Notes: generated by a model from the sequence alone, not told the origin. A stretch of DNA of 64,000 bases from an uncultured Clostridia bacterium (GCA_964543295.1 CAZIXA010000002.1:46410-110409), one strand, 5' to 3'. Numbered from the stretch's first letter, positions 4,603-59,777 are shown. Translations and numbers: made by a program.

Positions 4603-5610
4603 TTGATATACAGCGACGGAGGGGAAGAGTCCCGAAATATACTTGAAGTCAAGAACCTGAAGACCTATTTTTACACGGATGAAGGAGTAGTTCGGGCTGT
4701 TGACGGTATAAGCTTCCACATAAAAAAGGGGGAGACCCTTGGTATGATAGGCGAATCAGGTTGTGGCAAGAGTGTAACTGCTCTTTCTATCATGCGACTC
4801 GTTCCTCAGCCGCCGGGACGGATAATCGGGGGCGAGATCTACTTCAAAGGTGAGAATCTCAGGGAGAAAAGCGAGCCTGAGATGCGGAGAATAAGAGGCA
4901 ATGAAATAGCCATGGTTTTTCAGGAACCAATGACCTCGCTTAATCCCTTATTTACCATCGGAGATCAGATAGCCGAGGCCATTATTCTTCATCAGAAAGT
5001 GGATAAACGAGAAGCCCAATATCGGGTGATAGAGGTGTTACAGAGAGTCGGTATGCCTGCTCCGGAGCGAAGAGCTCATCAATATCCTCACCAGTTGAGT
5101 GGAGGGATGCGTCAGAGGGCAATGATAGCTATGTCTTTATCCTGTAATCCTGATCTCTTGATTGCGGATGAGCCTACTACTGCTCTGGATGTAACTATTC
5201 AGGCTCAAATACTGGAGTTAATGGAGAGATTCAAAGATGCGTTGGGGATGGCTCTTCTTCTAATCACGCACAATCTGGGAGTCATAGCGGAAGTTTCGGA
5301 CAGAGTAGTTGTTGTCTATGCGGGAAAGACCGTGGAATATGCAGGTGCGCAGACGATCTTTAAGCATCCCAGACACCCTTATATGATGGGATTGCTCGAG
5401 TCGGTGCCCAGATTGGACGATGCCAGTAAAAAGTTAAAGATAATAAAAGGAGCCGTTCCTTTCGGCTTGAATTTGCCGAGGGGCTGTCGATTCCATCCTC
5501 GATGCGAAAAAGTTATGGACGTTTGCAAAGTCAAAGAGCCCCGAATTTTAAAAGTAGAAAAGAACCATTGGGTGCGATGCTGGCTCTGTGATTCAGAAGG
5601 AAAACTATAG
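4603..5610 (+). CDS. Oligopeptide/dipeptide ABC transporter ATP-binding protein (OppD/DppD type).
   Basis: Walker A GESGCGKS, signature LSGGMRQR, Walker [13 protein letters not shown], and the Opp C-terminal Cys-rich tail. The likely start is TTG 4603, placed 6 nt after AAGGAG. Confidence 0.85.
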
Positions 5611-5612
5611 AA

Positions 5613-6620
5613 ATGGTTAAAACAAATGGGAATCTCATGGAAGTGAAGAATCTCAAGAAATACTTTTCCCTGAGAGGAGGATTTCTGTCTCGAGCTACGG
5701 GGGAGATACGAGCGGTTGATGGAGTAAGTTTTTCTATTAGGCCAAAGGAAACCTTAGGATTGGTGGGTGAGAGTGGTTCGGGAAAAACTACCGTGGCCAG
5801 GGCAATCTTAAGACTCTCTTCTATAACTGATGGCCAGATTCTATTTAAAGGACGAAATATTTTTAAACTGGACAAAGAAGAACTCCGTAAGTTACGTCGG
5901 CGCCTTCAAATCATCTTTCAGGACCCTTATGCTTCCTTGAATCCCCGCATGAGTGTAGAAGAGATTGTGGGCGAGGGTATATTTATTCACAGGCTAGCCA
6001 AAGGGCCTGAGAAAAGAGAAAAGGTAGTACGATTGTTGGAGATAGTGGGGCTGTCAGCACATTACCTGAGGAGATACCCTCATGAATTAAGTGGGGGAGA
6101 GAGACAACGCATAGGAATAGCCAGGGCTCTAGCTGTTGATCCCCGGTTGATAGTTTGTGATGAGCCAGTATCGGCACTCGATGTTTCTATTCAAGCACAG
6201 GTCATAAACCTACTGGAGGATCTACAGCAAAGGTTTGGACTTTCTTATTTATTTATAGCTCATGACTTAAGCGTGGTAAGGCATATAGCCCATAGAGTGG
6301 CAGTAATGTATTTGGGTAAAATAGTAGAACTCGCCACCAAGGATGGTCTATATACATCACCTCAACATCCCTATACTGAGGCTTTGCTTTCCGCTGTGCC
6401 CATACCAGACCCCACGGTGGATCGACACCGAATAGTTCTCAAAGGTGAGATACCCAGTCCTGTAAATCCTCCCTCAGGCTGTTATTTTCATCCACGGTGC
6501 TGGTATGCAAAATCTGTCTGTAGAGAAAGAGCCCCTGAGTTGGTCGACTTGGGGGAAAGACATCTAGTTGCCTGTCATTTAAGACGGAAAAAAGTCAAGG
6601 AGGTAAAGACCGATGAATAA
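5613..6620 (+). CDS. Oligopeptide/dipeptide ABC transporter ATP-binding protein (OppF/DppF type).
   Basis: Walker A GESGSGKTT, signature LSGGERQR, Walker B CDEPVSALD, and a C-terminal oligopeptide-ABC tail. Confidence 0.85.
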   Translation: MVKTNGNLMEVKNLKKYFSLRGGFLSRATGEIRAVDGVSFSIRPKETLGLVGESGSGKTTVARAILRLSSITDGQILFKGRNIFKLDKEELRKLRRRLQIIFQDPYASLNPRMSVEEIVGEGIFIHRLAKGPEKREKVVRLLEIVGLSAHYLRRYPHELSGGERQRIGIARALAVDPRLIVCDEPVSALDVSIQAQVINLLEDLQQRFGLSYLFIAHDLSVVRHIAHRVAVMYLGKIVELATKDGLYTSPQHPYTEALLSAVPIPDPTVDRHRIVLKGEIPSPVNPPSGCYFHPRCWYAKSVCRERAPELVDLGERHLVACHLRRKKVKEVKTDE

Positions 6621-8520
6621 GTTTACAACTCTACTACTGGGAATTTGTGTTTTGTTTAGTTTATCTTTCCCTTCAGCGGCTGAGCTTACGAATCCCAAGG
6701 TTATGGAAGGAGAAGTGGGAAAGTATGGAGGTACCCTTGTCTGGTCTGTCTTTGGCAGCGGGCCCAAGACATTTAATTTTCCCATTGCTCAGGAGACTTC
6801 CTCTACCACTCCTTTAAGTTTCTTGTTTAGCGGATTAACCGAGACCAATGGGGTAACTACTGAGGTGGAACCTGCCCTGGCAGAGTCCTGGGAATTTAGT
6901 GAAGATGGGCTGGTCTGGACCTTTCACCTACGCAAGGGTGTTACCTGGTTCGATGGTGAGCCATTTACGGCAGATGATGTTGTCTTCACCTACAATAGCA
7001 TCATTTATAACAAGGATATTGCCTGCGGCATGCGGGATCTCTTAACCATTGAGGGAGAGAGAATAAAGGTAGAAAAAGTGGATGACTACACGGTAAGATT
7101 TACCTTGCCTGTTCCCTATGCACCTCTGCTAAGGCACTTAGGAACAGCCATTATGCCCAAACATATTCTCGAGCCAGCGGTGAAGAAAGGTACCTATATG
7201 ACCACCTGGGGAGTGGATACCCCACCTAACAAGCTCATTGGGACAGGACCTTTTATGATGACTCAATATGTTCCTGCGGATAGAATCATTTTTAAAAGAA
7301 ATCCTCATTACTGGAAGGTGGATAAAGAAGGTAATCAACTGCCTTATCTAGATGGTATGATTATGTTGATTGTCCCTTCCATAGACACTCAACTTCTCAA
7401 GTTCCAGGCAGGTGAGATTGACATCTACGGGATGAGAGGAGAAGATTATGCTGTCCTCAAACCCAAGGAAAAGGAAGGCAACTTCACCGTTACCAAAGGT
7501 GGACCAACATTTGGTTCTGAGTTTGTTATCTTAAACTGGAGCCATCCCGACCCGGTTAAATTCAAATGGTTTAACAATCCCCAGTTTAGAAAGGCCTTAG
7601 CTCACGCTATTGACAGGCAGACCTTTATTGATGACGTCATGTACGGATTTGGCGTACCTCAATGGAGTCCAGTCTCTCCCGCCGTGAAAGCCTTCTACAA
7701 TCCGGAGGTAAAGAAATATCCCTATGACCTGGCCAAGGCGAGAAAGATTTTACAGGAGGCTGGTTTTAGGTTGAAAACTGAGAAAGGCAAGCAATCTAGA
7801 ATGGGAAAAATTGGGCCTTGGTCAAGGTGGATAGTCTTTTCGATATCCATATTGGTGCTTTGCTTTCTTGGTGTATGGACGGCCATCAGAAGAAAATGGC
7901 GAATTATGATCATTTGGATTGTACTAATAGGTGTCATTGTCATAGGCAATTATTATGTTTCCCTGCCGCCGGCTGGACCAAAATATTTATATGACCCGGA
8001 GGGTCATAAGGTAGAGTTTGAGCTCTTCACCAATAGCGGTAATAGTGTCCGGGAGGCTCTGGGTACATTAGTGGCTGATGATCTTAAAAAATTAGGAATG
8101 AACGTTCATTTCCGACCCCTTGATTTCAATCTCTTAGTCCAAAAATTAACTTCCAAACCACAAGGTGACTGGGATGCCATCATCATTGGTTTGACTGGTG
8201 GAGTGGAGCCTCACGGCGGTGCTAATGTCTGGAAGTCTGATGGACAATTACATTCCTGGAATTATAATCCTGAAAATAGATATGACTGGGAACTAAAGGT
8301 AGATGATTTGTTCAATAAGGGTGTCCAGGAATTGGATCCCAAAAAGAGAAAACTAATCTATGATCAATGGCAAATGATTGTTTCTGAGAAGCTTCCCTTC
8401 CTTTATTCGGCCCTATCCACTTACCTTAGTGCGGCTAGAAACACTCTTAAAAATGCCCGTCCCACCGCCTACGGAGGTACCCTTTGGAATGTGGAGGTGC
8501 TTTATCTAGAAAAAGAATAA
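6613..8520 (+). CDS. ABC transporter substrate-binding protein, family 5 (OppA/DppA-like), with an atypical internal insertion of about 55 aa carrying two hydrophobic helices.
   Basis: A signal peptide and the family-5 SBP blocks (LPYLDGMIMLIV, YLYDPEGHKVEFELFTNSGN) are present. Residues around 390-445 (nt 7777-7980) are strongly hydrophobic, as expected for transmembrane segments. Confidence 0.75.
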   Translation: MNKFTTLLLGICVLFSLSFPSAAELTNPKVMEGEVGKYGGTLVWSVFGSGPKTFNFPIAQETSSTTPLSFLFSGLTETNGVTTEVEPALAESWEFSEDGLVWTFHLRKGVTWFDGEPFTADDVVFTYNSIIYNKDIACGMRDLLTIEGERIKVEKVDDYTVRFTLPVPYAPLLRHLGTAIMPKHILEPAVKKGTYMTTWGVDTPPNKLIGTGPFMMTQYVPADRIIFKRNPHYWKVDKEGNQLPYLDGMIMLIVPSIDTQLLKFQAGEIDIYGMRGEDYAVLKPKEKEGNFTVTKGGPTFGSEFVILNWSHPDPVKFKWFNNPQFRKALAHAIDRQTFIDDVMYGFGVPQWSPVSPAVKAFYNPEVKKYPYDLAKARKILQEAGFRLKTEKGKQSRMGKIGPWSRWIVFSISILVLCFLGVWTAIRRKWRIMIIWIVLIGVIVIGNYYVSLPPAGPKYLYDPEGHKVEFELFTNSGNSVREALGTLVADDLKKLGMNVHFRPLDFNLLVQKLTSKPQGDWDAIIIGLTGGVEPHGGANVWKSDGQLHSWNYNPENRYDWELKVDDLFNKGVQELDPKKRKLIYDQWQMIVSEKLPFLYSALSTYLSAARNTLKNARPTAYGGTLWNVEVLYLEKE

Positions 8521-14820: not shown

Positions 14821-14900
14821 TCACTTGACACTTCAAATATTTTTATCATTTTTACCAAAAAATGTTAAATATCAATAAAAATGATACTTAAATTAAGGGA
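14821..14900 (+). promoter_or_regulatory. Promoter/operator element, copy 1. TTGACA at 14825-14830, then the inverted repeat TATCA-N7-TGATA at 14870-14886.
   Basis: An approximately 80-bp element repeated at 14990-15070 with about 85% identity. It contains a -35-like TTGACA and a 5-N7-5 inverted repeat. Confidence 0.45.
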
Positions 14901-14989: not shown

Positions 14990-15070
14990 CCTCTTGACAC
15001 TTTGAATATTTTTATTATCTTTAAAAAAAGATGGTAAATATCAATAAAATTGATACTTAAGTGACAAAGA
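14990..15070 (+). promoter_or_regulatory. Promoter/operator element, copy 2. TTGACA at 14994-14999, IR TATCA-N7-TGATA at 15039-15055. It ends about 27 bp upstream of the ArsR-type regulator gene.
   Basis: Same architecture as copy 1. The position fits an autoregulated operator for the downstream wHTH regulator. Confidence 0.45.
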
Positions 15071-15082
15071 GGGAGCTAAAGA

Positions 15083-16015
15083 ATGGATGATAAACTCCTA
15101 GTTGTCCCGGTAACTAAAGGCAAGGAAGATGCATTTACGATTCTTAAATCTCTGGCCTCCAAAGTCCGGCTGGATATATTGGATATATTAAAAGATAAGA
15201 AACTTAATGTGAGCGATATCGCTGAAAAGCTGGGTATTCCTCAATCTACTGTTTCAACTAATCTCAAGTTTTTAGAAGAAGCTGGCTTAGTTAAAGTGGA
15301 GATTGCCTCTGGCAAAAAAGGAGCTCAAAAATTATGTTCTTCCTGTTATGAAGAAGTTGTATTTCAGCTACCCAGTATGAAAAGAAAGCCTCAAGAAAAT
15401 ATCATTGAGGTAGAAATGCCAGTAGGATTATACACAGATTTTAAAGTGAGTCCTCCTTGTGGTCTGTGTTCAAAGGATAAAATCATTGGTTTTTTGGATG
15501 TACCCAACTCCTTTCATGAACCTGCTCGTGCTACGGCCAGTTTAATATGGTTTGAAAGAGGGTTTGTGGAATACAAATTCCCCAACAACCTTCCTATTGA
15601 TAGGGAATTAAAGAGGCTTGAGGTAAGCATGGAATTATCCTCAGAAGTTGTCGGCACTAGTAAAGATTGGCCCTCAGATATAACAGTATGGATAAATGGT
15701 GTAGAGATAGGAGGTTGGACCTCCTCCGGTGATTTTGGAGACAAGCGGGGAAAACTTACTCCTGAGTGGTGGAAATTAGCGGGGTCTCAATATGGACTGC
15801 TCAAGAGATGGAGTGTTACCAAAACTGGGTCCTTTGTAGATGGGGTAAGGATATCCAATGTAACAATATCTAACTTAGGAATTAAAAATCATACTTCCAT
15901 AAAGGTTAAAATTGGAATTAAAGAGGGCGCTAAGAACATCGGGGGTATAAACATATTCGGTAGCAACTTCGGAAACTATGACCAGGATATTGTAATGAGA
16001 CTGGAGTTGGGATAA
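15083..16015 (+). CDS. ArsR-family winged-HTH transcriptional regulator with a C-terminal domain of unknown function of about 220 aa.
   Basis: The N-terminal ArsR HTH signature (VRLDILDILKDKKLNVSDIAEKLGIPQSTVSTNLKFLEEAGLV), the AGAGGGAG RBS, and its position at the head of a sugar ABC/glycosidase locus. Confidence 0.7.
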   Translation: MDDKLLVVPVTKGKEDAFTILKSLASKVRLDILDILKDKKLNVSDIAEKLGIPQSTVSTNLKFLEEAGLVKVEIASGKKGAQKLCSSCYEEVVFQLPSMKRKPQENIIEVEMPVGLYTDFKVSPPCGLCSKDKIIGFLDVPNSFHEPARATASLIWFERGFVEYKFPNNLPIDRELKRLEVSMELSSEVVGTSKDWPSDITVWINGVEIGGWTSSGDFGDKRGKLTPEWWKLAGSQYGLLKRWSVTKTGSFVDGVRISNVTISNLGIKNHTSIKVKIGIKEGAKNIGGINIFGSNFGNYDQDIVMRLELG

Positions 16016-19676: not shown

Positions 19677-21641
19677 ATGCCAATTAGATGTTTAGAATTC
19701 CAAAGAATTTCCTGGAAGGATAGGGGAGTTGTATCCACAACGAACAGTTCTTTTTGTAAATTGAAACCTATTCCCATCAGAGCTGTACAGATGAGGGCAG
19801 GATTTTGGAAATCTCGAATGGACACGCTTGCGACAGTTATTCTAAAAAAGCAGATGCAAGAGATTCGAAAAAGTGGTGTCCTTGATAACTTTATGCGTGT
19901 TTACGGCAAATCAGATGCAGAGTTTAGGGGGTTTTACTTTGTGGACTCAGATATCTACAAATGGATAGAGGCTGCCTCCTGGGCCCTTCAGACCCAAGAT
20001 CTGCCCGAAATTGAAAAAATGATCAACGAGGCCATTGATATTATCGAGCCGGCTCAAGGTGACGATGGCTATCTTAATACTTACTTTCAAAAGGAAAGAG
20101 CTGGGAAACGTTGGACAGATTTGGAGCATATGCATGAGCTATACTGTGCCGGTCACCTGTTTCAAGCAGCCATTGCTCATCACCGTTCTACCGGCAGTGA
20201 TCGACTGCTCAATATCGCTTGCAAATATGCGGATTACATTTGTGAGGTATTTGGACCTGGGAAAAAGGAAACCCACCCGGGCCATCCAGAGATTGAGATG
20301 GGATTGATTGAACTATATCGGGAAACAGGACTAAAACGCTATCTTAATATGGCAGGTTTTTTCATCGACCACATTGGGGGCAAGGATATGCGGGAACTCC
20401 TGGGACACGCTGTACGAGCGTTATATTTCTGTTGTGGAATGACTGACTACTATGTAGAGACGGGAGACCGAGCCTATCCGAAGGCATTGGAGAGTTTATG
20501 GAAGAGTATGACAGAGACCAAGATGTACGTGACTGGAGCTGTGGGTGGTCGGGTCCACACCGAGTCCTTTGGTCGAGAATTTGAACTGCCAAACGAAAAC
20601 TGTTATGCAGAAACCTGTGCAGCCATTGCCTCAGCGTTCTGGAACTGGCGGATGCTTACCATTAATGGAGAGGCTCGTTTTGCGGATCTCGTGGAATTAA
20701 CATTGTATAACAGCATTTTCTCAGGTATCTCACTTGATGGGGAAAAATACTTTTACGTCAATCCTCATGCCAGTAGCGGTAGGTCTACGGGAGATCCATG
20801 GTACTCCTTTGATAGATCTAGTGCATCTACCCGCCAAACTTGGTTCAAATGTGCATGCTGTCCGCCGAACCTTGCACGAATATTTGCCAGTCTGTCTGGA
20901 TATTTCTATTCAACCAGTAATGAGGGTATCTGGATTCACCTCTATGACAACAATACCGTCAACTGGCGTCTACCAGACGGAACGAAGTTTGTTCTTTCTC
21001 AAAGGACTAACTATCCCTGGGATGGCAAGATTGAAATTGAGATATTCCCGGAGAAAGAAAAAGAATTCAGCCTTTTCCTTCGTATCCCGGGGTGGTGTCG
21101 AAAAGCTTCTATCATGGTGAATGATGAGTTGATATCCGGTGCCATCCAAGCTGGCAGCTATTATGAGATTAAGAGAACCTGGAGGAAGAAAAGCAAGGTC
21201 GTCCTGGATATGGCGATGCCCCCAGTTTTGATGATCTCTAATCCTATGGTGGCTGAGAATCGTTGCAGTGTTGCGCTGAAGCGCGGTCCGATTATCTATT
21301 GTTTTGAAGGAGTAGATAACCCAGGCATATTTGTCCGACAAGCTAGATTAAAGGTAGATTCTGAAAACCCTGGGAAGAACCTTAAAACCGAATTTCGTCC
21401 TGATCTACTCGGGGGTGTTATGGTAATAAGAGGGGAAGGAATGATTCCTGTGGAGAATTGGGGTCCTCTATACAGACCTTTCGAGACAAATCCCGTCAAA
21501 ACTAAACCAGTGGTTCTAAAAACAATCCCTTACTATGCTTGGGATAACCGCGGTGTCTCCGAGATGAGTATATGGATACAAATGGACAAAACTAAACTTT
21601 TATCAGAAAATGTAAAAACTAGTATAGCGTTTTCTAAATAA
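19677..21641 (+). CDS. Glycoside hydrolase family 127 (DUF1680) beta-L-arabinofuranosidase (HypBA1-like).
   Basis: The GH127 architecture and the Cys-rich zinc/catalytic motif FKCACCPPN. GGAGGAG lies upstream of ATG 19677. Confidence 0.8.
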   Translation: MPIRCLEFQRISWKDRGVVSTTNSSFCKLKPIPIRAVQMRAGFWKSRMDTLATVILKKQMQEIRKSGVLDNFMRVYGKSDAEFRGFYFVDSDIYKWIEAASWALQTQDLPEIEKMINEAIDIIEPAQGDDGYLNTYFQKERAGKRWTDLEHMHELYCAGHLFQAAIAHHRSTGSDRLLNIACKYADYICEVFGPGKKETHPGHPEIEMGLIELYRETGLKRYLNMAGFFIDHIGGKDMRELLGHAVRALYFCCGMTDYYVETGDRAYPKALESLWKSMTETKMYVTGAVGGRVHTESFGREFELPNENCYAETCAAIASAFWNWRMLTINGEARFADLVELTLYNSIFSGISLDGEKYFYVNPHASSGRSTGDPWYSFDRSSASTRQTWFKCACCPPNLARIFASLSGYFYSTSNEGIWIHLYDNNTVNWRLPDGTKFVLSQRTNYPWDGKIEIEIFPEKEKEFSLFLRIPGWCRKASIMVNDELISGAIQAGSYYEIKRTWRKKSKVVLDMAMPPVLMISNPMVAENRCSVALKRGPIIYCFEGVDNPGIFVRQARLKVDSENPGKNLKTEFRPDLLGGVMVIRGEGMIPVENWGPLYRPFETNPVKTKPVVLKTIPYYAWDNRGVSEMSIWIQMDKTKLLSENVKTSIAFSK

Positions 21642-21801
21642 CGTTACAACAATTTGTCATTGTGAGTGATAGCGAAACAATCTTAAAATCTTACCAACTG
21701 AGGGATTGCTTTGTCGCTTTGCTCCCTGGAATGACAGGATAAAATGTAAAGTTAATTGGGAAACGAACTACTAGATTAAAAAATCGATATCTTCAAGGCA
21801 T

Positions 21802-21977
21802 AGGAATTTCAATAATTTCTCTGAATCGTTATGAAGTAAACCTCGGCAGACGAGATATCAGAAAAAAGAGGGGAGCAGGCTCGACTTGCTCGAGCGAAGC
21901 GAGAGTCGGCTTCGCCGATCGAGCCATCGAGGGGGGAATTCTGAAGGAATCGGCGAAGCCCTATTTCCCCCCTCGAG
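21802..21977 (+). repeat. Structured repeat element of about 175-190 nt, copy 1 (promoter-like 5' part followed by nested GC-rich stems). The second copy is at 58802-58975.
   Basis: About 95% identity to 58802-58975. Internal inverted repeats: GCTTCGCCGAT/ATCGGCGAAGC and TCGAGGGGGGAA/TTCCCCCCTCGA. Confidence 0.7.
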
Positions 21978-22067
21978 TATCTTGTTCCAAAAGTAGAGAC
22001 ACGACTTATGGAGGGGAATATAGGTTAAGATTTGAAAAAGTACTGATAAAATGAGGGGTTTGTAATA

Positions 22068-23540
22068 ATGAATAATTACAGAATCAAAATTGATACAGAA
22101 AGACAAATTGGCAAAATAGATCTTAATATCTACGGTCACTTCATAGAACATCTAGGAAGATGTATTTATGGGGGTATTTATGAGGAGGACTCTTCTCTTT
22201 CTGATGAGAGAGGTTTCAGAAAAGATATATTGGAGGCAGCGAAAGCTATAAAATGTCCTCTTCTGAGATGGCCGGGAGGTAACTTTGCCTCCAATTATCA
22301 CTGGGAAGATGGGATTGGTCCTAAGGAGAAAAGGCCGGTGCGGTTTGATCTTGCCTGGAGTAAAGAGGAGACAAATAGATTTGGTACAGACGAGTTTATT
22401 GACTATTGTCGAGCAATAGGAGCTGAGCCTTACATTTGTGTTAACATAGGAACTGGCACTTTAGACGAAGCCATACACTGGCTGGAATACTGCAATGGCA
22501 GTGGGAATACTTATTATGCGAAATTAAGAGAAAAAAATGGCCATCTAGAACCTTACCGGGTTAAATACTGGGGGATAGGGAACGAGAACTATGGGGAATG
22601 GCAAGTAGGATACAGATCAGCAAAGGAGTATGCGAAGGTTTTACGAGAATATGCCAAGTTTATGAAAGTGGTTGATCCCAACATAAAAGTCGTGGCTGTG
22701 GGGGCTGATAATCCTGATTGGGATCTTGAAGTAACCAAAACCGCCGGAAAATATATAGACTATATTTCCAATCACCAGTATGTGGGCTCCGGCGACTATT
22801 ATGAAACAGTAGCTTCCATTTACTGGATTGAGAAGAGGCTAAAAATTCTAAAGAGTACGATAGAAATAGCTCAACCTTTAGCAAAAGAGGAAGAAAGAGT
22901 AAAAATCGCTTTTGATGAGTGGAATATTTGGTACAGAAGTACGCCAGAAAATGGCAATGAAGAAAATTATGCTCTGAAGGATGGACTATTCGCCGCTGGA
23001 GTGTTTATTATCTTGCATAAGCTATGTCGGAGCGTGACCCTGGCCAACCTGGCTCAACTGGTAAATGTACTGGGAGCTATCCACACGGAAAGGCATGGTC
23101 TTTACCTTACTTCAATTTATAGAGCTTTTGAGCTTTTTGTTAACCACACGGGAGAAATAGCACTAGATACTTTAGTTAATTCAGAAACTTACGATATTGT
23201 AGGGAAGGCGCATTTCGGTCGCAGAGGGTTCAAGCTAACCAATGTTCCCTATTTGGATGCCTCTGTAACCCTAAGCAGACACAAAGATAAGTTATATATT
23301 GTCACAGTTAATTATCATCGGGAGAAAGACATAGAGTGCCCTATATCCTTGGAAGGTTTTTCCTTTAAGGAAGAAGCAAAAGTCTATGAGCTTAACGGTC
23401 CCGATGTGATGGCGGTAAATGATTTTGATAACCCACAGAGAATCAGGATAAAAGATAAGACAATCAAAAAAGTCAGTCCTAGATTTAGTTATGTTTTTCC
23501 TGCCCATTCAGCCACGGTAATAGAATTCAAAGTGGGTTGA
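22068..23540 (+). CDS. Glycoside hydrolase family 51 alpha-L-arabinofuranosidase (AbfA-like).
   Basis: GH51 catalytic-region motifs (WGIGNENYG acid/base region, FDEWNIW nucleophile region). Length is 490 aa. Confidence 0.85.
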   Translation: MNNYRIKIDTERQIGKIDLNIYGHFIEHLGRCIYGGIYEEDSSLSDERGFRKDILEAAKAIKCPLLRWPGGNFASNYHWEDGIGPKEKRPVRFDLAWSKEETNRFGTDEFIDYCRAIGAEPYICVNIGTGTLDEAIHWLEYCNGSGNTYYAKLREKNGHLEPYRVKYWGIGNENYGEWQVGYRSAKEYAKVLREYAKFMKVVDPNIKVVAVGADNPDWDLEVTKTAGKYIDYISNHQYVGSGDYYETVASIYWIEKRLKILKSTIEIAQPLAKEEERVKIAFDEWNIWYRSTPENGNEENYALKDGLFAAGVFIILHKLCRSVTLANLAQLVNVLGAIHTERHGLYLTSIYRAFELFVNHTGEIALDTLVNSETYDIVGKAHFGRRGFKLTNVPYLDASVTLSRHKDKLYIVTVNYHREKDIECPISLEGFSFKEEAKVYELNGPDVMAVNDFDNPQRIRIKDKTIKKVSPRFSYVFPAHSATVIEFKVG

Positions 23541-27732: not shown

Positions 27733-27758
27733 AAAAAAAGGGGACGTGATTAATTTTC
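27733..27758 (+). repeat. REP element, forward, preceded by a partial copy, 49 bp upstream of the RAYT gene.
   Basis: AAAAAAAGGGGACGTGATTAATTTTC, followed by TTGACT-N16-TAAGAT, a promoter-like sequence. Confidence 0.75.
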
Positions 27759-27806
27759 TTGACTTCTTGGATTTTATTAGTAAGATGAAATAGAAAGGAG
27801 AATTAA

Positions 27807-28496
27807 ATGCCTAGACAGGCTCGTGTTGTTATTGCCAACATACCCTATCACATAATTCACCGGGGGAATAACAGACAGGCCATATTTTTTGGTGAGAATG
27901 ATTATAAATTCTTTCTTGAAGCAATGAAAGAAGCCAAAGAAAAGCATCCTAATAAAGTCTATGCCTATGTGTTAATGAGCAATCATGTCCATCTTTTGTT
28001 AGAGCCAAAGAAAAGAGAGAATCTTCATCAATTCATAAAACTTCTTGCTGCAAAATATACCGGCTATGTTAATAGGATTTATCAGAGGACAGGAGTACTT
28101 TGGGAGGGCCGATTTAGAAGCTCTCCGGTGGGAGGCGAAAGATATTTTTTAGCCTGTCTGCGTTACATCGAGATGAATCCTTTGCGGGCAGGGATGGCTA
28201 AGGAGTTAGAAGAATACCCCTGGAGTAGTTACAGATTCCGAGCCCACGGAGAGAACAGCAAGATTTTAGATTACGATGTGTGGTATGAAGCATTGGCAGA
28301 GGAGGCATTAGTCAGGCAGAAAAGGTATAGAAAATTCTTCCAGGAGACAGTTCTGGAAAGTGAATGGAAGTTAATCAGAGAAATGGCCAACAGGGGAGGA
28401 ATAACAGGGAGTCAAAAATTCTCAGAAAAGATTGAGAAGATTTTGGGCAGGAAGATTATATTGAGACCAATAGGAAGACCTAAGATAAAAAAATAA
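27807..28496 (+). mobile_element. REP-associated tyrosine transposase (RAYT; IS200/IS605-like Y1 HUH transposase, TnpA_REP).
   Basis: The HUH motif SNHVHLL and the catalytic Tyr region (YTGYVNRIYQRTGVLWEGRF). The gene is flanked by REP copies in inverted orientation, at 27733 (forward) and 28486 (reverse). Confidence 0.8.
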
Positions 28497-28512
28497 TCAC
28501 GTCCCCTTTTTT
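28486..28512 (-). repeat. REP element in reverse orientation, overlapping the RAYT stop codon.
   Basis: AAAAAAATAATCACGTCCCCTTTTTTT is the reverse complement of the REP consensus. Confidence 0.75.
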
Positions 28513-38716: not shown

Positions 38717-39166
38717 GTGGAAGATAGAGCAGTAGAGGAAATAAAACGGCACTTCGATGTGGTAGCGGAAAGCTTAAAAGATGAGATTAAGCTAATAGCA
38801 GAAGGACATGTCCTTCTGAACAAAACAATAGGCGATCTTCGAGAAGATATAGATGAGCTTCGAAAAGAAAATGCACAAGAGCATGCTATCCTCAACAGGA
38901 GAATAGATGATCTCCGTAAAGAGAATGCGGAAGAACATGCTCTCCTCAACAGGAGAATAGATGATCTCCGTAAAGAGAATGCGGAAGAACATGCTATGCT
39001 GAACCAGAGAATAGACGATCTTCGTAGAGAGAATGCAGAGGAACATCGAGAGATCCTATCAGCCATAAAGTTTTCCTACGCTGAGCTGGACCACCGCATC
39101 GTAGCTCTAGAGGACAAATTCGCTGACATTGAGAAACGTATAACTCGTCTAGAAAGTCTTCGTTAG
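38717..39166 (+). CDS. Coiled-coil protein built from four 18-aa (54-bp) tandem repeats (RRIDDLRKENAEEHAxLN).
   Basis: The tandem repeats at 38839-39054 are in frame. No recognisable domain. Confidence 0.55.
   Translation: MEDRAVEEIKRHFDVVAESLKDEIKLIAEGHVLLNKTIGDLREDIDELRKENAQEHAILNRRIDDLRKENAEEHALLNRRIDDLRKENAEEHAMLNQRIDDLRRENAEEHREILSAIKFSYAELDHRIVALEDKFADIEKRITRLESLR
38839..39054 (+). repeat. Four tandem copies of a 54-bp unit inside the coiled-coil gene (two near-identical, two diverged).
   Basis: Units at 38839, 38893, 38947 and 39001. The 38893 and 38947 copies differ at only a few positions. Confidence 0.8.
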
Positions 39167-58074: not shown

Positions 58075-58748
58075 GACCTCCAATTATGTTAAGCAAGATT
58101 CCGTCTGAGTTGTTCGGCCTTTATTCTAACCTGGGAGTTAAAGCAGCATCATATGCACCTCTGCGTTGGCGTTTGTGTCCGTTTGAGGAGATAGAGAAAC
58201 ATGTCCCTGAGGAAGGAACAATTATTGACATAGGTTGTGGATATGGCCTACTGGCTAATTTTTTAGTCTTAAGGTCGAGCAAAAGAGATGTCACCGGGAT
58301 AGACCTTTCAGTGGGAAGAATTAGGGTAGCCCAAAAAACTACCGATAATCGAAAGAAAGTCCAATTCAAGCTTATGAATGCACTTGATTTGCAATCAGGA
58401 GAGTACAGTACTGTAGTAATGAGCGACTTTCTGCATCATATTGATTACCAAGCCCAGGAAGAACTACTGGTTCGTTGTTATCAAAAACTGCCCCCCGGGG
58501 GGCTTCTCATTATCGAAGAAGTGGATAATAGACCGCTCTGGAAATATTGGTTTGCCGTCATCAACGACAAGATCCTGAACGTTGGTGAGCGGCAGTTTTT
58601 TCGTGGCCGCCATGAATTCCAGGAGCTTTTGCAGAGAATCGGCTTTTTGGTGAGGACAAAGAAAGTAGATAAAGGTATCCCGCTATCTGATATTCTATTC
58701 ATATGTAGAAAGAAAGGCAGTTCAACAACCTCTTCAAGAACCTTATAA
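58071..58748 (+). CDS. Class I SAM-dependent methyltransferase.
   Basis: Motif I IDIGCGYGLL and a post-I GIDLS segment. Confidence 0.8.
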   Translation: MRPPIMLSKIPSELFGLYSNLGVKAASYAPLRWRLCPFEEIEKHVPEEGTIIDIGCGYGLLANFLVLRSSKRDVTGIDLSVGRIRVAQKTTDNRKKVQFKLMNALDLQSGEYSTVVMSDFLHHIDYQAQEELLVRCYQKLPPGGLLIIEEVDNRPLWKYWFAVINDKILNVGERQFFRGRHEFQELLQRIGFLVRTKKVDKGIPLSDILFICRKKGSSTTSSRTL

Positions 58749-58801
58749 TTAAAGAGAAAGGCAGGGAATCCGTCGAACTCACGGAGGAAATTTTAAGGTA
58801 T

Positions 58802-58975
58802 GGGAATTTGAATAATTTCTCTGAATTGTTATCAAGTAAACCTCGGCAGACGAGATATCAGAAAAAAGAGGGGAGCAGGCTCGACTTGCTCGAGCGAAGC
58901 GAGAGTCGGCTTTGCCGATCGAGCCGTCGAGGGGGGAATTCCGAAGGAATCGGCGAAGCCCTATTTCCCCTCTCA
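58802..58975 (+). repeat. Structured repeat element, copy 2 (see 21802-21977).
   Basis: About 95% identity to copy 1 over roughly 175 nt. Stem 1 is retained with a C-to-T change that gives a G-U wobble; the terminal stem 2 is degraded. Confidence 0.7.
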
Positions 58976-59000
58976 ATATGTTCGAGATGGAATTGAAGGT

Positions 59001-59777
59001 ATGATCATAATACTATTGCCAGCTTACAATGAGGCATCTGGTATTGAAGAGCTACTTGGTAGAATAGGAGAAGTGCTTAACTATAACGAATATCAGGTTA
59101 TAGTGGTAAATGATGGGAGCACCAATGGAACAAAAGAAATCGTTACTAAATGCGCTCAACGGCAACCGATCACTTTACTAAATCATCGAGTTAACCTGGG
59201 GCTGGGGAAGGCTATGGAAACGGGTATTTTGTATACTTGTTCTCACTTCAAAAGCAATGATATATTAGTAACTATGGATGCCGATAACACCCATGATCCC
59301 CAGATGATAAAACAAATGGTCCAGAAAGTCGACAACGGGGTAGATATGGTGATTGGTTCTCGTTTCGTTAAGAAAAGTGGGGAGATAGGTGTCCCTACGT
59401 ATCGCAAGCTACTCAGCAGAGCGGTGAAAATCCTGTTAAGAGTGATTTTCCCTGGGGTCAAGGTAAAGGATTACACCAGTGGTTACCGAGTATATCGGGT
59501 TAGTCTACTTAAGAAGGCACTAAAAGTTCACCATCCATTAGTCAAATCACGAGGATTTGGGGTAATGGCAGAGCTACTTTTGAAACTAAATTGCCTAAAG
59601 CCTTTGGTAGTTGAGGTGCCCCTGGTATTACACTATAACCATAAAACGGGCAAAAGTAAGATCAAAATTTTGTCAACGGTGATTGAATATGGGAAGATGA
59701 CCTTTGACCTGAAAAGAGAGGAAATCCTGGGTCACTGGAGAGTCGATAATCTAAGGAATATTCATAATGGCCGCTGA
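59001..59777 (+). CDS. GT2-family polyprenyl-phosphate glycosyltransferase (DPM1/ArnC/GtrB-like).
   Basis: LLPAYNE…VIVVNDGSTNGT…TMDADNTHDP (DxD). Confidence 0.8.
   Translation: MIIILLPAYNEASGIEELLGRIGEVLNYNEYQVIVVNDGSTNGTKEIVTKCAQRQPITLLNHRVNLGLGKAMETGILYTCSHFKSNDILVTMDADNTHDPQMIKQMVQKVDNGVDMVIGSRFVKKSGEIGVPTYRKLLSRAVKILLRVIFPGVKVKDYTSGYRVYRVSLLKKALKVHHPLVKSRGFGVMAELLLKLNCLKPLVVEVPLVLHYNHKTGKSKIKILSTVIEYGKMTFDLKREEILGHWRVDNLRNIHNGR

Follow-up and report, generated by a model that had tools for sequence, protein, structure and literature searches.

An element of about 175 nt had been read, from the sequence alone, as occurring twice in a 64,000-nt stretch of bacterial DNA (the window), each time directly upstream of a glycan-acting gene. 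The question is what kind of element this is, and what it might do in front of those genes. The sequence-only reading offered three options: a cis-regulatory leader RNA such as a riboswitch or attenuator, a small RNA gene, or a MITE-like mobile repeat carrying an outward promoter. On balance, we lean towards a non-autonomous mobile repeat without terminal inverted repeats (TIRs), which would reside in 5' leaders, be co-transcribed, experience selection on its hairpins at the RNA level, and act as a generic leader module.

Two copies of the repeat in the window

The window repeat search found a single 183-nt direct repeat with 95% identity (21792-21974 and 58792-58974), bearing out the claim of two copies at this level of likeness. 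Pairwise alignment of the copies placed the similarity from ~21796/58796, where it starts with AGG(C/T)AT, to ~21984/58983, and it was lost after GTATCTTG (21984). A 27-mer from the element core had two exact matches in the window, compared with none expected. In the covariance model, the two window copies scored 134 and 120 bits, and the next best match scored 18 bits. No third copy was found in the window by an HMM of family members, nor by the covariance model with filters off.

Both copies lie on the plus strand and, as had been noted, in the same orientation as the GH51 and GT2 genes downstream of them. Copy 1 (21796..21984) is a long variant of 189 nt, with 83 nt between it and the GH51 start codon at 22068. 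Copy 2 (58796..58983), recovered by alignment, HMM and covariance model, is also a long variant, but its 3' tail AATATGTTC is degenerate. It starts 44 nt past the stop of a methyltransferase gene, and ~18 nt separate its end from the GT2 start codon at 59001. The element had been described as far more GC-rich than the surrounding DNA; this applied to its 3' two-thirds (61%, compared with 42% for the window), but not to its 5' third (34-37%). The spacing between the copies is exactly 37,000 nt; we put this down to chance, given that an independent short-read (Logan) assembly of the window's own genome is interrupted within copy 1. A break at this point is expected for a repeat.

Family size and range

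The pattern GCTCGAN5TCGAGCGAAGCGAGAG was scanned through one genome per species. This hairpin-core pattern (27 nt) gave 11 loci, several of the matches being at contig ends. All were within four MAGs, two of which are titled Candidatus Aerophobetes and two labelled only "bacterium". All named genomes in which the element was found belong to Candidatus Aerophobetes. When metagenomes were scanned with a pattern drawn from the 5' part and the matches filtered with an HMM, 59 hits were obtained, representing 53 distinct sequences. These metagenome copies were found via the 5' module, so the conservation of that module is inflated among them; the module was nonetheless present in every hairpin-pattern copy not cut by a contig end, a set in which its ascertainment is unbiased. 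The search beyond the window, which the sequence-only reading had proposed as a check, thus revealed a repeat family of at least 50 copies, at ~36 independent loci after merging orthologous loci. Viral contigs gave no match with three patterns. The comparison against Rfam, likewise proposed, was negative: at the gathering threshold, Rfam 15 matched only tRNAs and left the element unmatched in the window and 12 loci, and at a permissive threshold it returned only noise at E up to 10 for 21600-22150.

Lengths across the family ranged from 125 to 195 nt. Paralogous copies were 90-97% identical over 125-190 nt, while their flanks were unrelated. Between orthologous loci, the identity of the element was about that of its flanks, which were 85-97% identical across species. 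The likeness of paralogous copies implies constraint, gene conversion or recent spread. Conservation of 90-97% across species also exceeds the need of a merely tolerated insertion and hints at a more specific function, which counts against the reading that we favour.

Modular architecture

The 41-sequence alignment showed one order of parts: an AT-rich 5' module of ~64 nt, an A-run, GAGGGGAG, a hairpin P1, a dinucleotide, a second hairpin P2, and the tail RTATCTTG. In copy 1, where all parts are on the plus strand, the 5' module (AGGCATAGGAATTTCAATAATTTCTCTGAAT..GGCAGACGAGATATC) spans 21796..21859 and holds the hexamers TTCAAT (21808-21813) and TATGAA (21830-21835). A single-stranded linker follows at 21860..21877. 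It consists of the A-run (21862-21867), which is 5-8 A across the family, and then the Shine-Dalgarno-like GAGGGGAG (21868-21875), which was near-invariant among the 41 copies. P1 (21878..21925) has an outer stem, GGCTCGA (21878-21884) paired with TCGAGCC (21919-21925), and in the MFE fold an optional inner arm, TCG-A-GCGAAGC (21890-21900) paired with GCTTCGC-CGA (21909-21918). The dinucleotide between the hairpins is GU in the family and AU in copy 1. In P2 (21927..21976), TCGAGGGGGG (21927-21936) pairs with CCCCCCTCGA (21967-21976), and the conserved 3' tail GTATCTTG occupies 21977..21984. The hairpins of copy 2, also on the plus strand, lie at 58878..58925 (P1) and 58927..58976 (P2); the 3' arm of the latter is CCCCTCTCAA, and its stem is weakened.

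Two segments proved optional. The 29-nt P1 inner arm was missing from five copies (L092, L038, L019, L022 and L023). A 24-nt insert in the P2 loop, at 21938-21961 in copy 1, contains two C-GAA-G mini-hairpins and includes the 3' half of stem 1 of the sequence-only reading; it was present in 17 of the 41 aligned copies and missing from 24. Its presence differed between orthologous loci with flanks more than 95% identical (L009 vs L028, L029 vs L060, and L083/L013 vs L103/L018). Minimal members, L063 and L030, consisted of a short P1 and P2 only, and L016 and L090 of the 5' module with a single P2-like hairpin. At the loci examined, the two modules, 5' and 3', were contiguous except where another element interrupted them. 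Locus L044 was considered as proof of an independent 5' module, and this was ruled out, as it represents a normal copy split by an unrelated MITE. A coding element was also rejected: one frame is open across it, yet this frame is disrupted by the indels of 29 and 24 nt and by the variable A-run.

Compensatory substitutions in P1 and P2

Under a nested model (P1 with its inner arm, and P2), 91.6% of cells in the alignment were paired, compared with 43-53% when the 3' partners were slid by 1-3 columns. For P2, the value was 96%. Compensated changes were identified in P1 at columns 95/139 (U-A in 19 copies, C-G in 14), in P2 at columns 145/195 (C-G in 23 copies, U-A in 14) and 146/194 (a G-C to G-U to A-U series), and at columns 155/187 (G-C, G-U and A-U). 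The comparison of additional copies, another check that had been suggested, supported both hairpins: the base-pairing of P1 and P2 is kept by compensatory substitutions. Most of these compensations split two subfamilies, corresponding to few independent events.

The sequence-only reading had described two interleaved long-range stems, implying either a pseudoknot or mutually exclusive folds. As inverted repeats these stems are real, with perfect 12-nt complementarity in copy 1: TCGAGGGGGGAA/TTCCCCCCTCGA matches over 12 nt at 100% in copy 1 and over 10 nt at 90% in copy 2, and GGCTTCGCCGAT/ATCGGCGAAGCC at 100% in copy 1 and 92% in copy 2, with a G-U as the mismatch. Stem 2, which is equivalent to P2, was supported, whereas stem 1 showed no covariation. 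The pseudoknot is unsupported because stem 1 needs the optional insert, could be formed in 14 of 41 copies, and had no pairs changed on both sides. Its 5' half paired instead with an upstream GCGAAGC in 34 copies. The C-to-T change reported in stem 1 of copy 2 does keep the pairing as G-U, but T is the family majority at this position, and the C of copy 1 is the exception.

The local hairpin GCTCGA-cttgc-TCGAGC, also proposed from the two copies, did not survive comparison with the family, since 15 copies carry a T-to-C change at column 95 that breaks its pairing. In the outer stem GGCTCGA...TCGAGCC, this change has an exact compensation, indicating that the outer stem is the conserved one. 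A long-range closing stem, AGAUAU/GUAUCU (P0), was tried and rejected, as 79% of cells paired and 14 copies carried an uncompensated A-C.

Insertion without terminal inverted repeats

Comparison of orthologous loci was informative about mobility. GH51 orthologues in three other contigs (~82% identity) carried no copy. In the rsfS-tRNA-Ala-ilvD region, the place of the element differed among three lineages: it precedes the motif TGTCACAGGATATTGC in L008/L011, follows this motif and adjoins the tRNA in L009/L028, and lies upstream of rsfS in L032, whose rsfS-tRNA spacer is without the element. For the L032 copy, L009/L028 provided a base-precise empty site, GATAAAT^CTCATTGG, the filled site being GATAAATGT[AGGTAT...GAGTAT]CTCGCATGG. 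No target-site duplication (TSD) was visible in this L032 vs L009 pair.

Terminal inverted repeats were not found. Within 21600-22070 and 58700-59010, a search with a 6-nt seed returned only internal stems, and the element ends, AGGTAT... and ...GTATCTTG, are not complementary. MITEs with such ends would have been recognised, because a true MITE with 17-bp TIRs was found in the same genomes (L008, L044). Among the loci examined, Pfam analysis of flanking genes identified no transposase adjoining any copy and no autonomous relative. The upstream genes were ordinary housekeeping genes, with no transposase or TnpB seen among them, and a TnpB omega-RNA-like origin was dismissed on this basis. Judged from these alignments, the comparisons show repeated independent insertion without TIRs.

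Both sides of the element share an 8-nt consensus, ATATYTTG in the left flank and RTATCTTG at the right end. The left-hand motif is a degenerate form of that in the tail, lies just beyond the 5' end, and reads TATCTTCA at 21788-21795 in copy 1. Locus-specific matching of the flanks beyond the consensus was not significantly in excess (p = 0.04-0.06 for 4-mers and p = 0.11 for 8-mers). The shared motif suggests a preferred target or a recombination core more than a duplication of the classical kind. Together, the ATAWYTTR-like target, the lack of TIRs and TSD, and the strand bias resemble Y1 (IS200/IS605-type) single-strand or site-specific systems. The element has MITE-like traits, being small, non-coding and multi-copy with filled and empty orthologous sites. 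Assignment as a MITE in the strict sense was rejected, as there was no TIR, no demonstrable TSD and, at the loci examined, no related autonomous IS. Of the three options first offered, the mobile repeat came closest, although the outward promoter and the MITE ends that accompanied it were unsupported.

These features raise the possibility that the element acts at the DNA level only. It would then be a PATE- or REP-like selfish element, whose single-stranded DNA hairpins are recognised by a Y1 enzyme (IS200/IS605 or RAYT-type) or another recombinase, and whose RNA structure is incidental. We consider this unlikely, though the likeliest of the rival readings. It is compatible with the mobility part of the reading that we prefer. 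The lack of TIRs, the absence of a TSD at the single base-precise filled/empty pair, insertion beside a recurrent 8-nt motif and the strand-biased orientation are all consistent with it. The element also contains GCGAAGC-type mini-hairpin motifs, a type that is very stable in DNA, and the two strands of copy 1 fold about equally well.

PATEs, which derive from IS200/IS605, have no TIR or TSD, a short specific target motif, a strand-specific orientation and a hairpin near the right end. The element resembles them in its lack of TIR and TSD, its motif-adjacent insertion, its strand-specific orientation and its hairpin near the right end, but it has no left-end hairpin and no related autonomous IS, and its target is 8 nt long and degenerate. 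REPs are 20-40-nt palindromes, often in inverted pairs, that usually occur after genes and flank their RAYT. Like REPs and REPINs, the element is a short, hairpin-forming interspersed repeat without TIR or TSD, and RAYT-like Y1 genes with REPs of their own occur in the same genomes. However, the Y1 gene of the window (27807-28496) is flanked by GGGGACGTGATTA repeats and that of L005 by GTAGCCGCAGGCT hairpins, neither of which is related to the element by sequence. No Y1 gene was flanked by element hairpins, and a REP/REPIN assignment was rejected.

Other observations also argue against a role in DNA alone. The 5' end is without a strong hairpin, there is no GTAG-type REP signature, and the element lies before genes rather than after them. 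The plus strand carries an excess of G-U over A-C cells (63 vs 28), which is modest when counted by pairs (19 vs 13), and the dominant G-U at columns 112/130 would become an A-C mismatch on the other strand. The evidence on which strand matters, which also includes a plus strand fold better by 7 kcal/mol in the short variant, is modest.

Position relative to neighbouring genes

Neighbouring genes were assigned with crude ORF calls and with ARAGORN. At ~27 of 32 assessable independent loci, the element was followed by a co-oriented gene or tRNA. Between co-oriented genes, the element was in sense at ~16 loci and antisense at 2; it lay between divergent genes at 9 loci and between convergent genes at 3, two of these last copies being degenerate or interrupted. 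The tail was typically 10-30 nt before the start codon, leaving room for an RBS only. Gaps to tRNAs were similarly short: 0 nt (L009/L028) and 31 nt (L011) for tRNA-Ala, and 10 nt for a tRNA-Leu-Met-Met cluster (L053). Two observations run against the reading that we favour. Some 4-5 copies were antisense to or pointed into their neighbours (L071, L023/L047, L038 and L040), and the orientation bias may partly be a replication-strand bias, which is inseparable here from transcription direction.

The insertions lie in the short interval that separates a promoter from an RBS or from the 5' end of a tRNA, and nearly all are in sense. On the preferred reading, the element would be co-transcribed within the 5' leader, and its hairpins would matter in the plus strand RNA. 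If active at all, it may serve as a generic cis module of the leader, whose structure would affect stability or processing; alternatively, it may form a self-contained insulating fold that keeps the downstream RBS free. We infer that the element is neither a promoter nor a ligand- or pathway-specific regulator.

The genes behind the element were functionally unrelated and formed no coherent regulon. They encode GH51, GT2, aldo/keto and GFO/IDH/MocA reductases, SecA, ArgRS, MurJ, Lgt, ribosomal protein L9, RNase PH, RsfS, Asd, a LeuC-like protein, tRNA-Ala, tRNA-Leu/Met, an HD phosphohydrolase, an FGGY kinase, Fe-ADH, an FMN reductase and an HTH-cupin regulator. The proposed link to glycan-acting genes was not upheld, given this range of downstream genes and the GH51 orthologues that lack the element. 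The glycan association in the window is a coincidence of two copies.

Many of these targets are growth-related (tRNAs, L9, ArgRS, SecA, MurJ, RsfS, Asd and IlvD), as might be seen for a global cis-regulatory leader RNA, whether an attenuator or a protein-binding or small-molecule riboregulator, that places many housekeeping genes and tRNA operons under common control. High conservation among paralogous copies and across species, pairing maintained through compensation, and a fixed position directly before the RBS or tRNA are all in its favour. An alternative pairing would also be available to such an RNA: the C-tract of P2 can pair with its G-tract or, in place of P2, with the upstream GAGGGGAG. 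The latter is the MFE fold of copy 2, which carries the variant CCCCTCTC (AGAGGGGA at 58867-58874 with TCCCCTCT at 58966-58973). Since GAGGGGAG hardly varies, covariation is uninformative on this pairing.

Against a global leader RNA, GH51, GT2, oxidoreductases and genes of unknown function are found among the downstream genes as well, some copies run antisense to adjacent genes, and P2 is followed by no canonical U-tract. Rfam gave no match at gathering or permissive thresholds, and modules that are dispensable, and differ between orthologous loci, fit a defined binding pocket poorly. We regard this explanation as improbable. A riboswitch in particular, the first option of the sequence-only reading, was rejected given the negative Rfam search, the lack of a coherent regulon and the dispensability of whole modules. 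The stems covary; however, both the inner arm of P1 and the insert in the P2 loop can be lost, and the copies are too alike to define an invariant core.

A slightly more doubtful proposal is that of a mobile riboregulator, a self-propagating leader module that draws housekeeping genes and tRNA operons by the dozen into a single circuit of post-transcriptional control or attenuation. Such a circuit might toggle between P2 and the GAGGGGAG:C-tract pairing, or might need a dedicated RNA-binding protein. If true, it would be a natural case of regulon growth by RNA-element transposition.

Promoters upstream of the repeat

Each copy had been said to begin with a promoter-like segment. The hexamers exist (TTCAAT-N16-TATGAA/TATCAA), but they were reported in neither copy by a sigma-70 consensus scan, which required near-consensus -35 and -10 boxes, 16-18 nt spacing, and A2 and T6 in the -10. 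In our own sigma-70 scoring, the element itself reached less than 8/12. Strong promoters (at least 10/12, TTGACA-16/17-TAnnnT) were instead found 9-71 nt upstream of the element, and co-oriented with it, at 10 of 36 independent loci. Control analysis with shuffled sequences and random windows gave an expectation of ~1 and a maximum of 4 in 200 trials. Examples are TTGACA-16-TATAAT at L025 and TTGACA-16-TATATT at L005. The ten also include a sigma-70-like promoter match in the window (TCAACA-16-TATAAT, 10/12), on the plus strand at 58722..58749, 44 nt upstream of copy 2.

Canonical TTGACA/TAnnnT promoters numbered 71 in this genome, compared with 44 in shuffles. The motif in the left flank was tried as a -10 box and rejected, as a -35 was not enriched at 16-18 nt spacing. 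The promoter thus appears to lie upstream of the repeat, so that the propagated unit would be a leader segment and not a promoter. That a strong upstream promoter was seen at just 10 of the 36 loci counts against the reading that we favour.

A portable promoter would account for some of the same observations. Transcription would be initiated in the AT-rich module, perhaps with an alternative sigma factor, so that the new transcript would have the hairpins as its 5' end. The element is upstream of, and co-oriented with, genes. At several loci, just 1-45 nt lie between the end of an upstream co-oriented gene and the element, so that a further promoter would hardly fit, and in L016 and L090 the 5' module is fused to a reduced hairpin ahead of a gene. 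The element also contains AGGAATTT-N13-GAAT, which may resemble sigma-H-type boxes. Despite these points, we rate a portable promoter as distinctly improbable. TTCAAT/TATCAA lacks the conserved final T, was not called by the scan and scored below 8/12; canonical TTGACA/TAnnnT promoters do occur in the genome, and upstream of the element at 10 of 36 loci; and the -10-like motif in the left flank is without a -35 partner at the correct spacing.

The position of the element also fits the operational definition of putative mobile promoters (PMPs), which are at least 50 nt long and at least 80% identical, and lie upstream of non-homologous CDSs with unaligned flanks (Matus-Garcia et al. 2012; PMC3488235). 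PMP families number up to 93 per genome, and most are without an Rfam or IS match (PMC3488235). The element is 90-97% identical over 125-190 nt, has unrelated flanks and lies within ~200 nt of a start codon, its promoter activity being putative. The PMP definition is one of position, not of mechanism, and the promoter of the element appears to be upstream of the repeat.

Probable transcription through P2

No intrinsic terminator was called at copy 1, copy 2 or the L006 short variant. The tail of the element is GUAUCUUG, and there is no canonical U-tract. Canonical terminators were not enriched in this genome, and the missing U-tract after P2 is weak evidence. Essential genes lie 10-30 nt downstream of the element; transcription must therefore traverse it, and P2 would not be an efficient constitutive terminator. 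This read-through, with no room for a promoter belonging to the downstream gene itself, makes a multi-copy sRNA gene very improbable. Each copy would in that case produce a ~130-190-nt RNA ending at P2 and acting in trans, for example via its C-rich, anti-Shine-Dalgarno-like tract. In favour of this, P2 forms a terminal hairpin of high stability with GUAUCUUGU after it, the tract is complementary to the G-rich RBSs of these genomes, termination signals may be atypical here given the lack of enrichment of canonical ones, and a tRNA abutting the 3' end (L009) would allow release by RNase P. However, the C-tract is locked within an 11-bp G-C stem, the terminator scan was negative, and the strict adjacency of the element to the next gene start would be left without explanation.

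Relation to known interspersed repeats

Among known systems, the element works most like Correia elements, ERIC and BOX. ERIC of enterobacteria and BOX of pneumococcus are intergenic and transcribed, with stable RNA structure and orientation-dependent effects on mRNA stability. BOX is modular (A-B-C) with variable modules; both are largely palindromic and are not confined to the promoter-to-RBS interval. The element is likewise intergenic and modular, with a stable RNA fold, but it has no sequence relation to either, and is asymmetric: its first half is AT-rich, and its hairpins occupy a GC-rich second half.

Interspersed repeats of small size that alter expression (Correia, ERIC, BOX and REP) are well known in a few cultivated bacteria. 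The present family belongs to an uncultivated phylum and is without the usual transposon ends, nearly confined to the promoter-to-RBS interval in the sense orientation, and equipped with hairpins that are compensated across species. Should the RNA be functional, a common leader would be shared by many core genes, which would open a way to co-regulation across the genome and provide a convenient case in which to study the spread of regulatory RNA modules.

The Correia repeat-enclosed elements (CREE) of Neisseria are multi-copy, non-autonomous elements of ~100-155 nt, with a long and a short form distinguished by an internal segment. They are often located in 5' regions and co-transcribed, and their hairpins in mRNA affect the expression of neighbours; they have 26-bp terminal inverted repeats, a TA duplication, promoters at their ends, and binding of IHF (PMC2649163; reviewed in PMC2229807 and PMC10969869). 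The element is similarly small, multi-copy and non-autonomous, occurs in long and short forms in 5' regions, and would be co-transcribed. Unlike CREE, it is without TIRs, a demonstrable duplication or a consensus promoter, and is strongly polar, in sense only. In practice, the repeat breaks short-read assemblies of Aerophobetes MAGs, and one or two copies seen alone could pass for a gene-specific riboswitch.

Y1 transposase genes and associated repeats

The window holds a Y1 transposase gene (IS200-like, PF01797; 229 aa) on the plus strand at 27807-28496. Copies of a 26-nt repeat that includes the 13-mer GGGGACGTGATTA stand on either side of the gene, inverted relative to each other; gene and repeats together span 27740-28506. 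The 13-mer occurs seven times in the window (10745, 23558, 24342, 27740, 28494, 33658 and 33750), and at both positions checked (23558 and 28494) it lies at or just past a stop codon. This arrangement looks like that of a RAYT gene with its own REP family, the repeat of which is unrelated in sequence to the element.

A second, distant Y1 transposase gene was found outside the window in locus L005 (732-1282). The hairpins on either side of it, GTAGCCGCAGGCT...CCTGCG in inverted orientation, have a GTAG-type REP signature, and the core of a MITE family represented at two further loci, L008 and L044, consists of similar hairpins. The L008 member (~1350-1464, minus orientation) is a classical MITE, roughly 115 nt long; its imperfect TIRs (GTAAATGCTCAGTAAAC / GTTCACTGAATACTTAC) measure 17 bp and its duplication, GAAGTAAC, 8 bp. 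At this locus it sits between tRNA-Ala and the element, as an insertion that is missing from the paralogous L011. The L044 member (~1940-2085) interrupts a copy of the element itself. The resemblance between the hairpins around the L005 gene and the MITE core suggests a RAYT/REPIN-like pair in Aerophobetes.

Rearranged and interrupted copies of the element

Besides the L044 copy, another interrupted copy was identified at L040 (927-1192), where about 60 nt of inserted sequence, including GGAGGGGGAAACATCCCCC, lie within the P1 hairpin; the neighbouring gene is convergent, and this copy points into its 3′ end. Upstream of murJ at L007 (425-809, minus orientation), two copies are arranged head to tail, the second with a diverged P1 region, and the orthologous loci L013, L018, L083 and L103 each carry a single copy. 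In the window, the two copies start at 21792 and 58792, exactly 37,000 nt apart; this spacing was treated as coincidence, since, in an independent assembly of this genome, the sequence breaks off within copy 1.

Recurrent motifs around the element

The motif GAGTCCCRAGATATT lies directly 5′ of the element in four independent loci (L003, L005 at 5861-5875, L015 and L068/L111), and away from it in two more (L019 at 8351 and L103 at 7178). This could represent a further small repeat or an extension of the element's 5′ module. Motifs of the form TCACAGSGTRTTGCAA recur upstream of tRNA-Ala whether the element is present or absent, at L032 (~1921-2013), at L009 (~4940-4975) and, in L008/L011, just 3′ of the element. 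The similar sequence ACAAGGGTGTGGCAG was observed at L069 (~7440-7460), upstream of an unrelated gene.

Other repeats in the window

A direct repeat of 68 nt (14824-14891 and 14993-15060, 87% identity) lies upstream of a gene starting at 15083; it begins with CTTGACA, and contains consensus-like promoter boxes. At 38849-39010, three tandem 54-nt units with 80-85% identity lie inside an ORF and encode an 18-residue peptide repeat.
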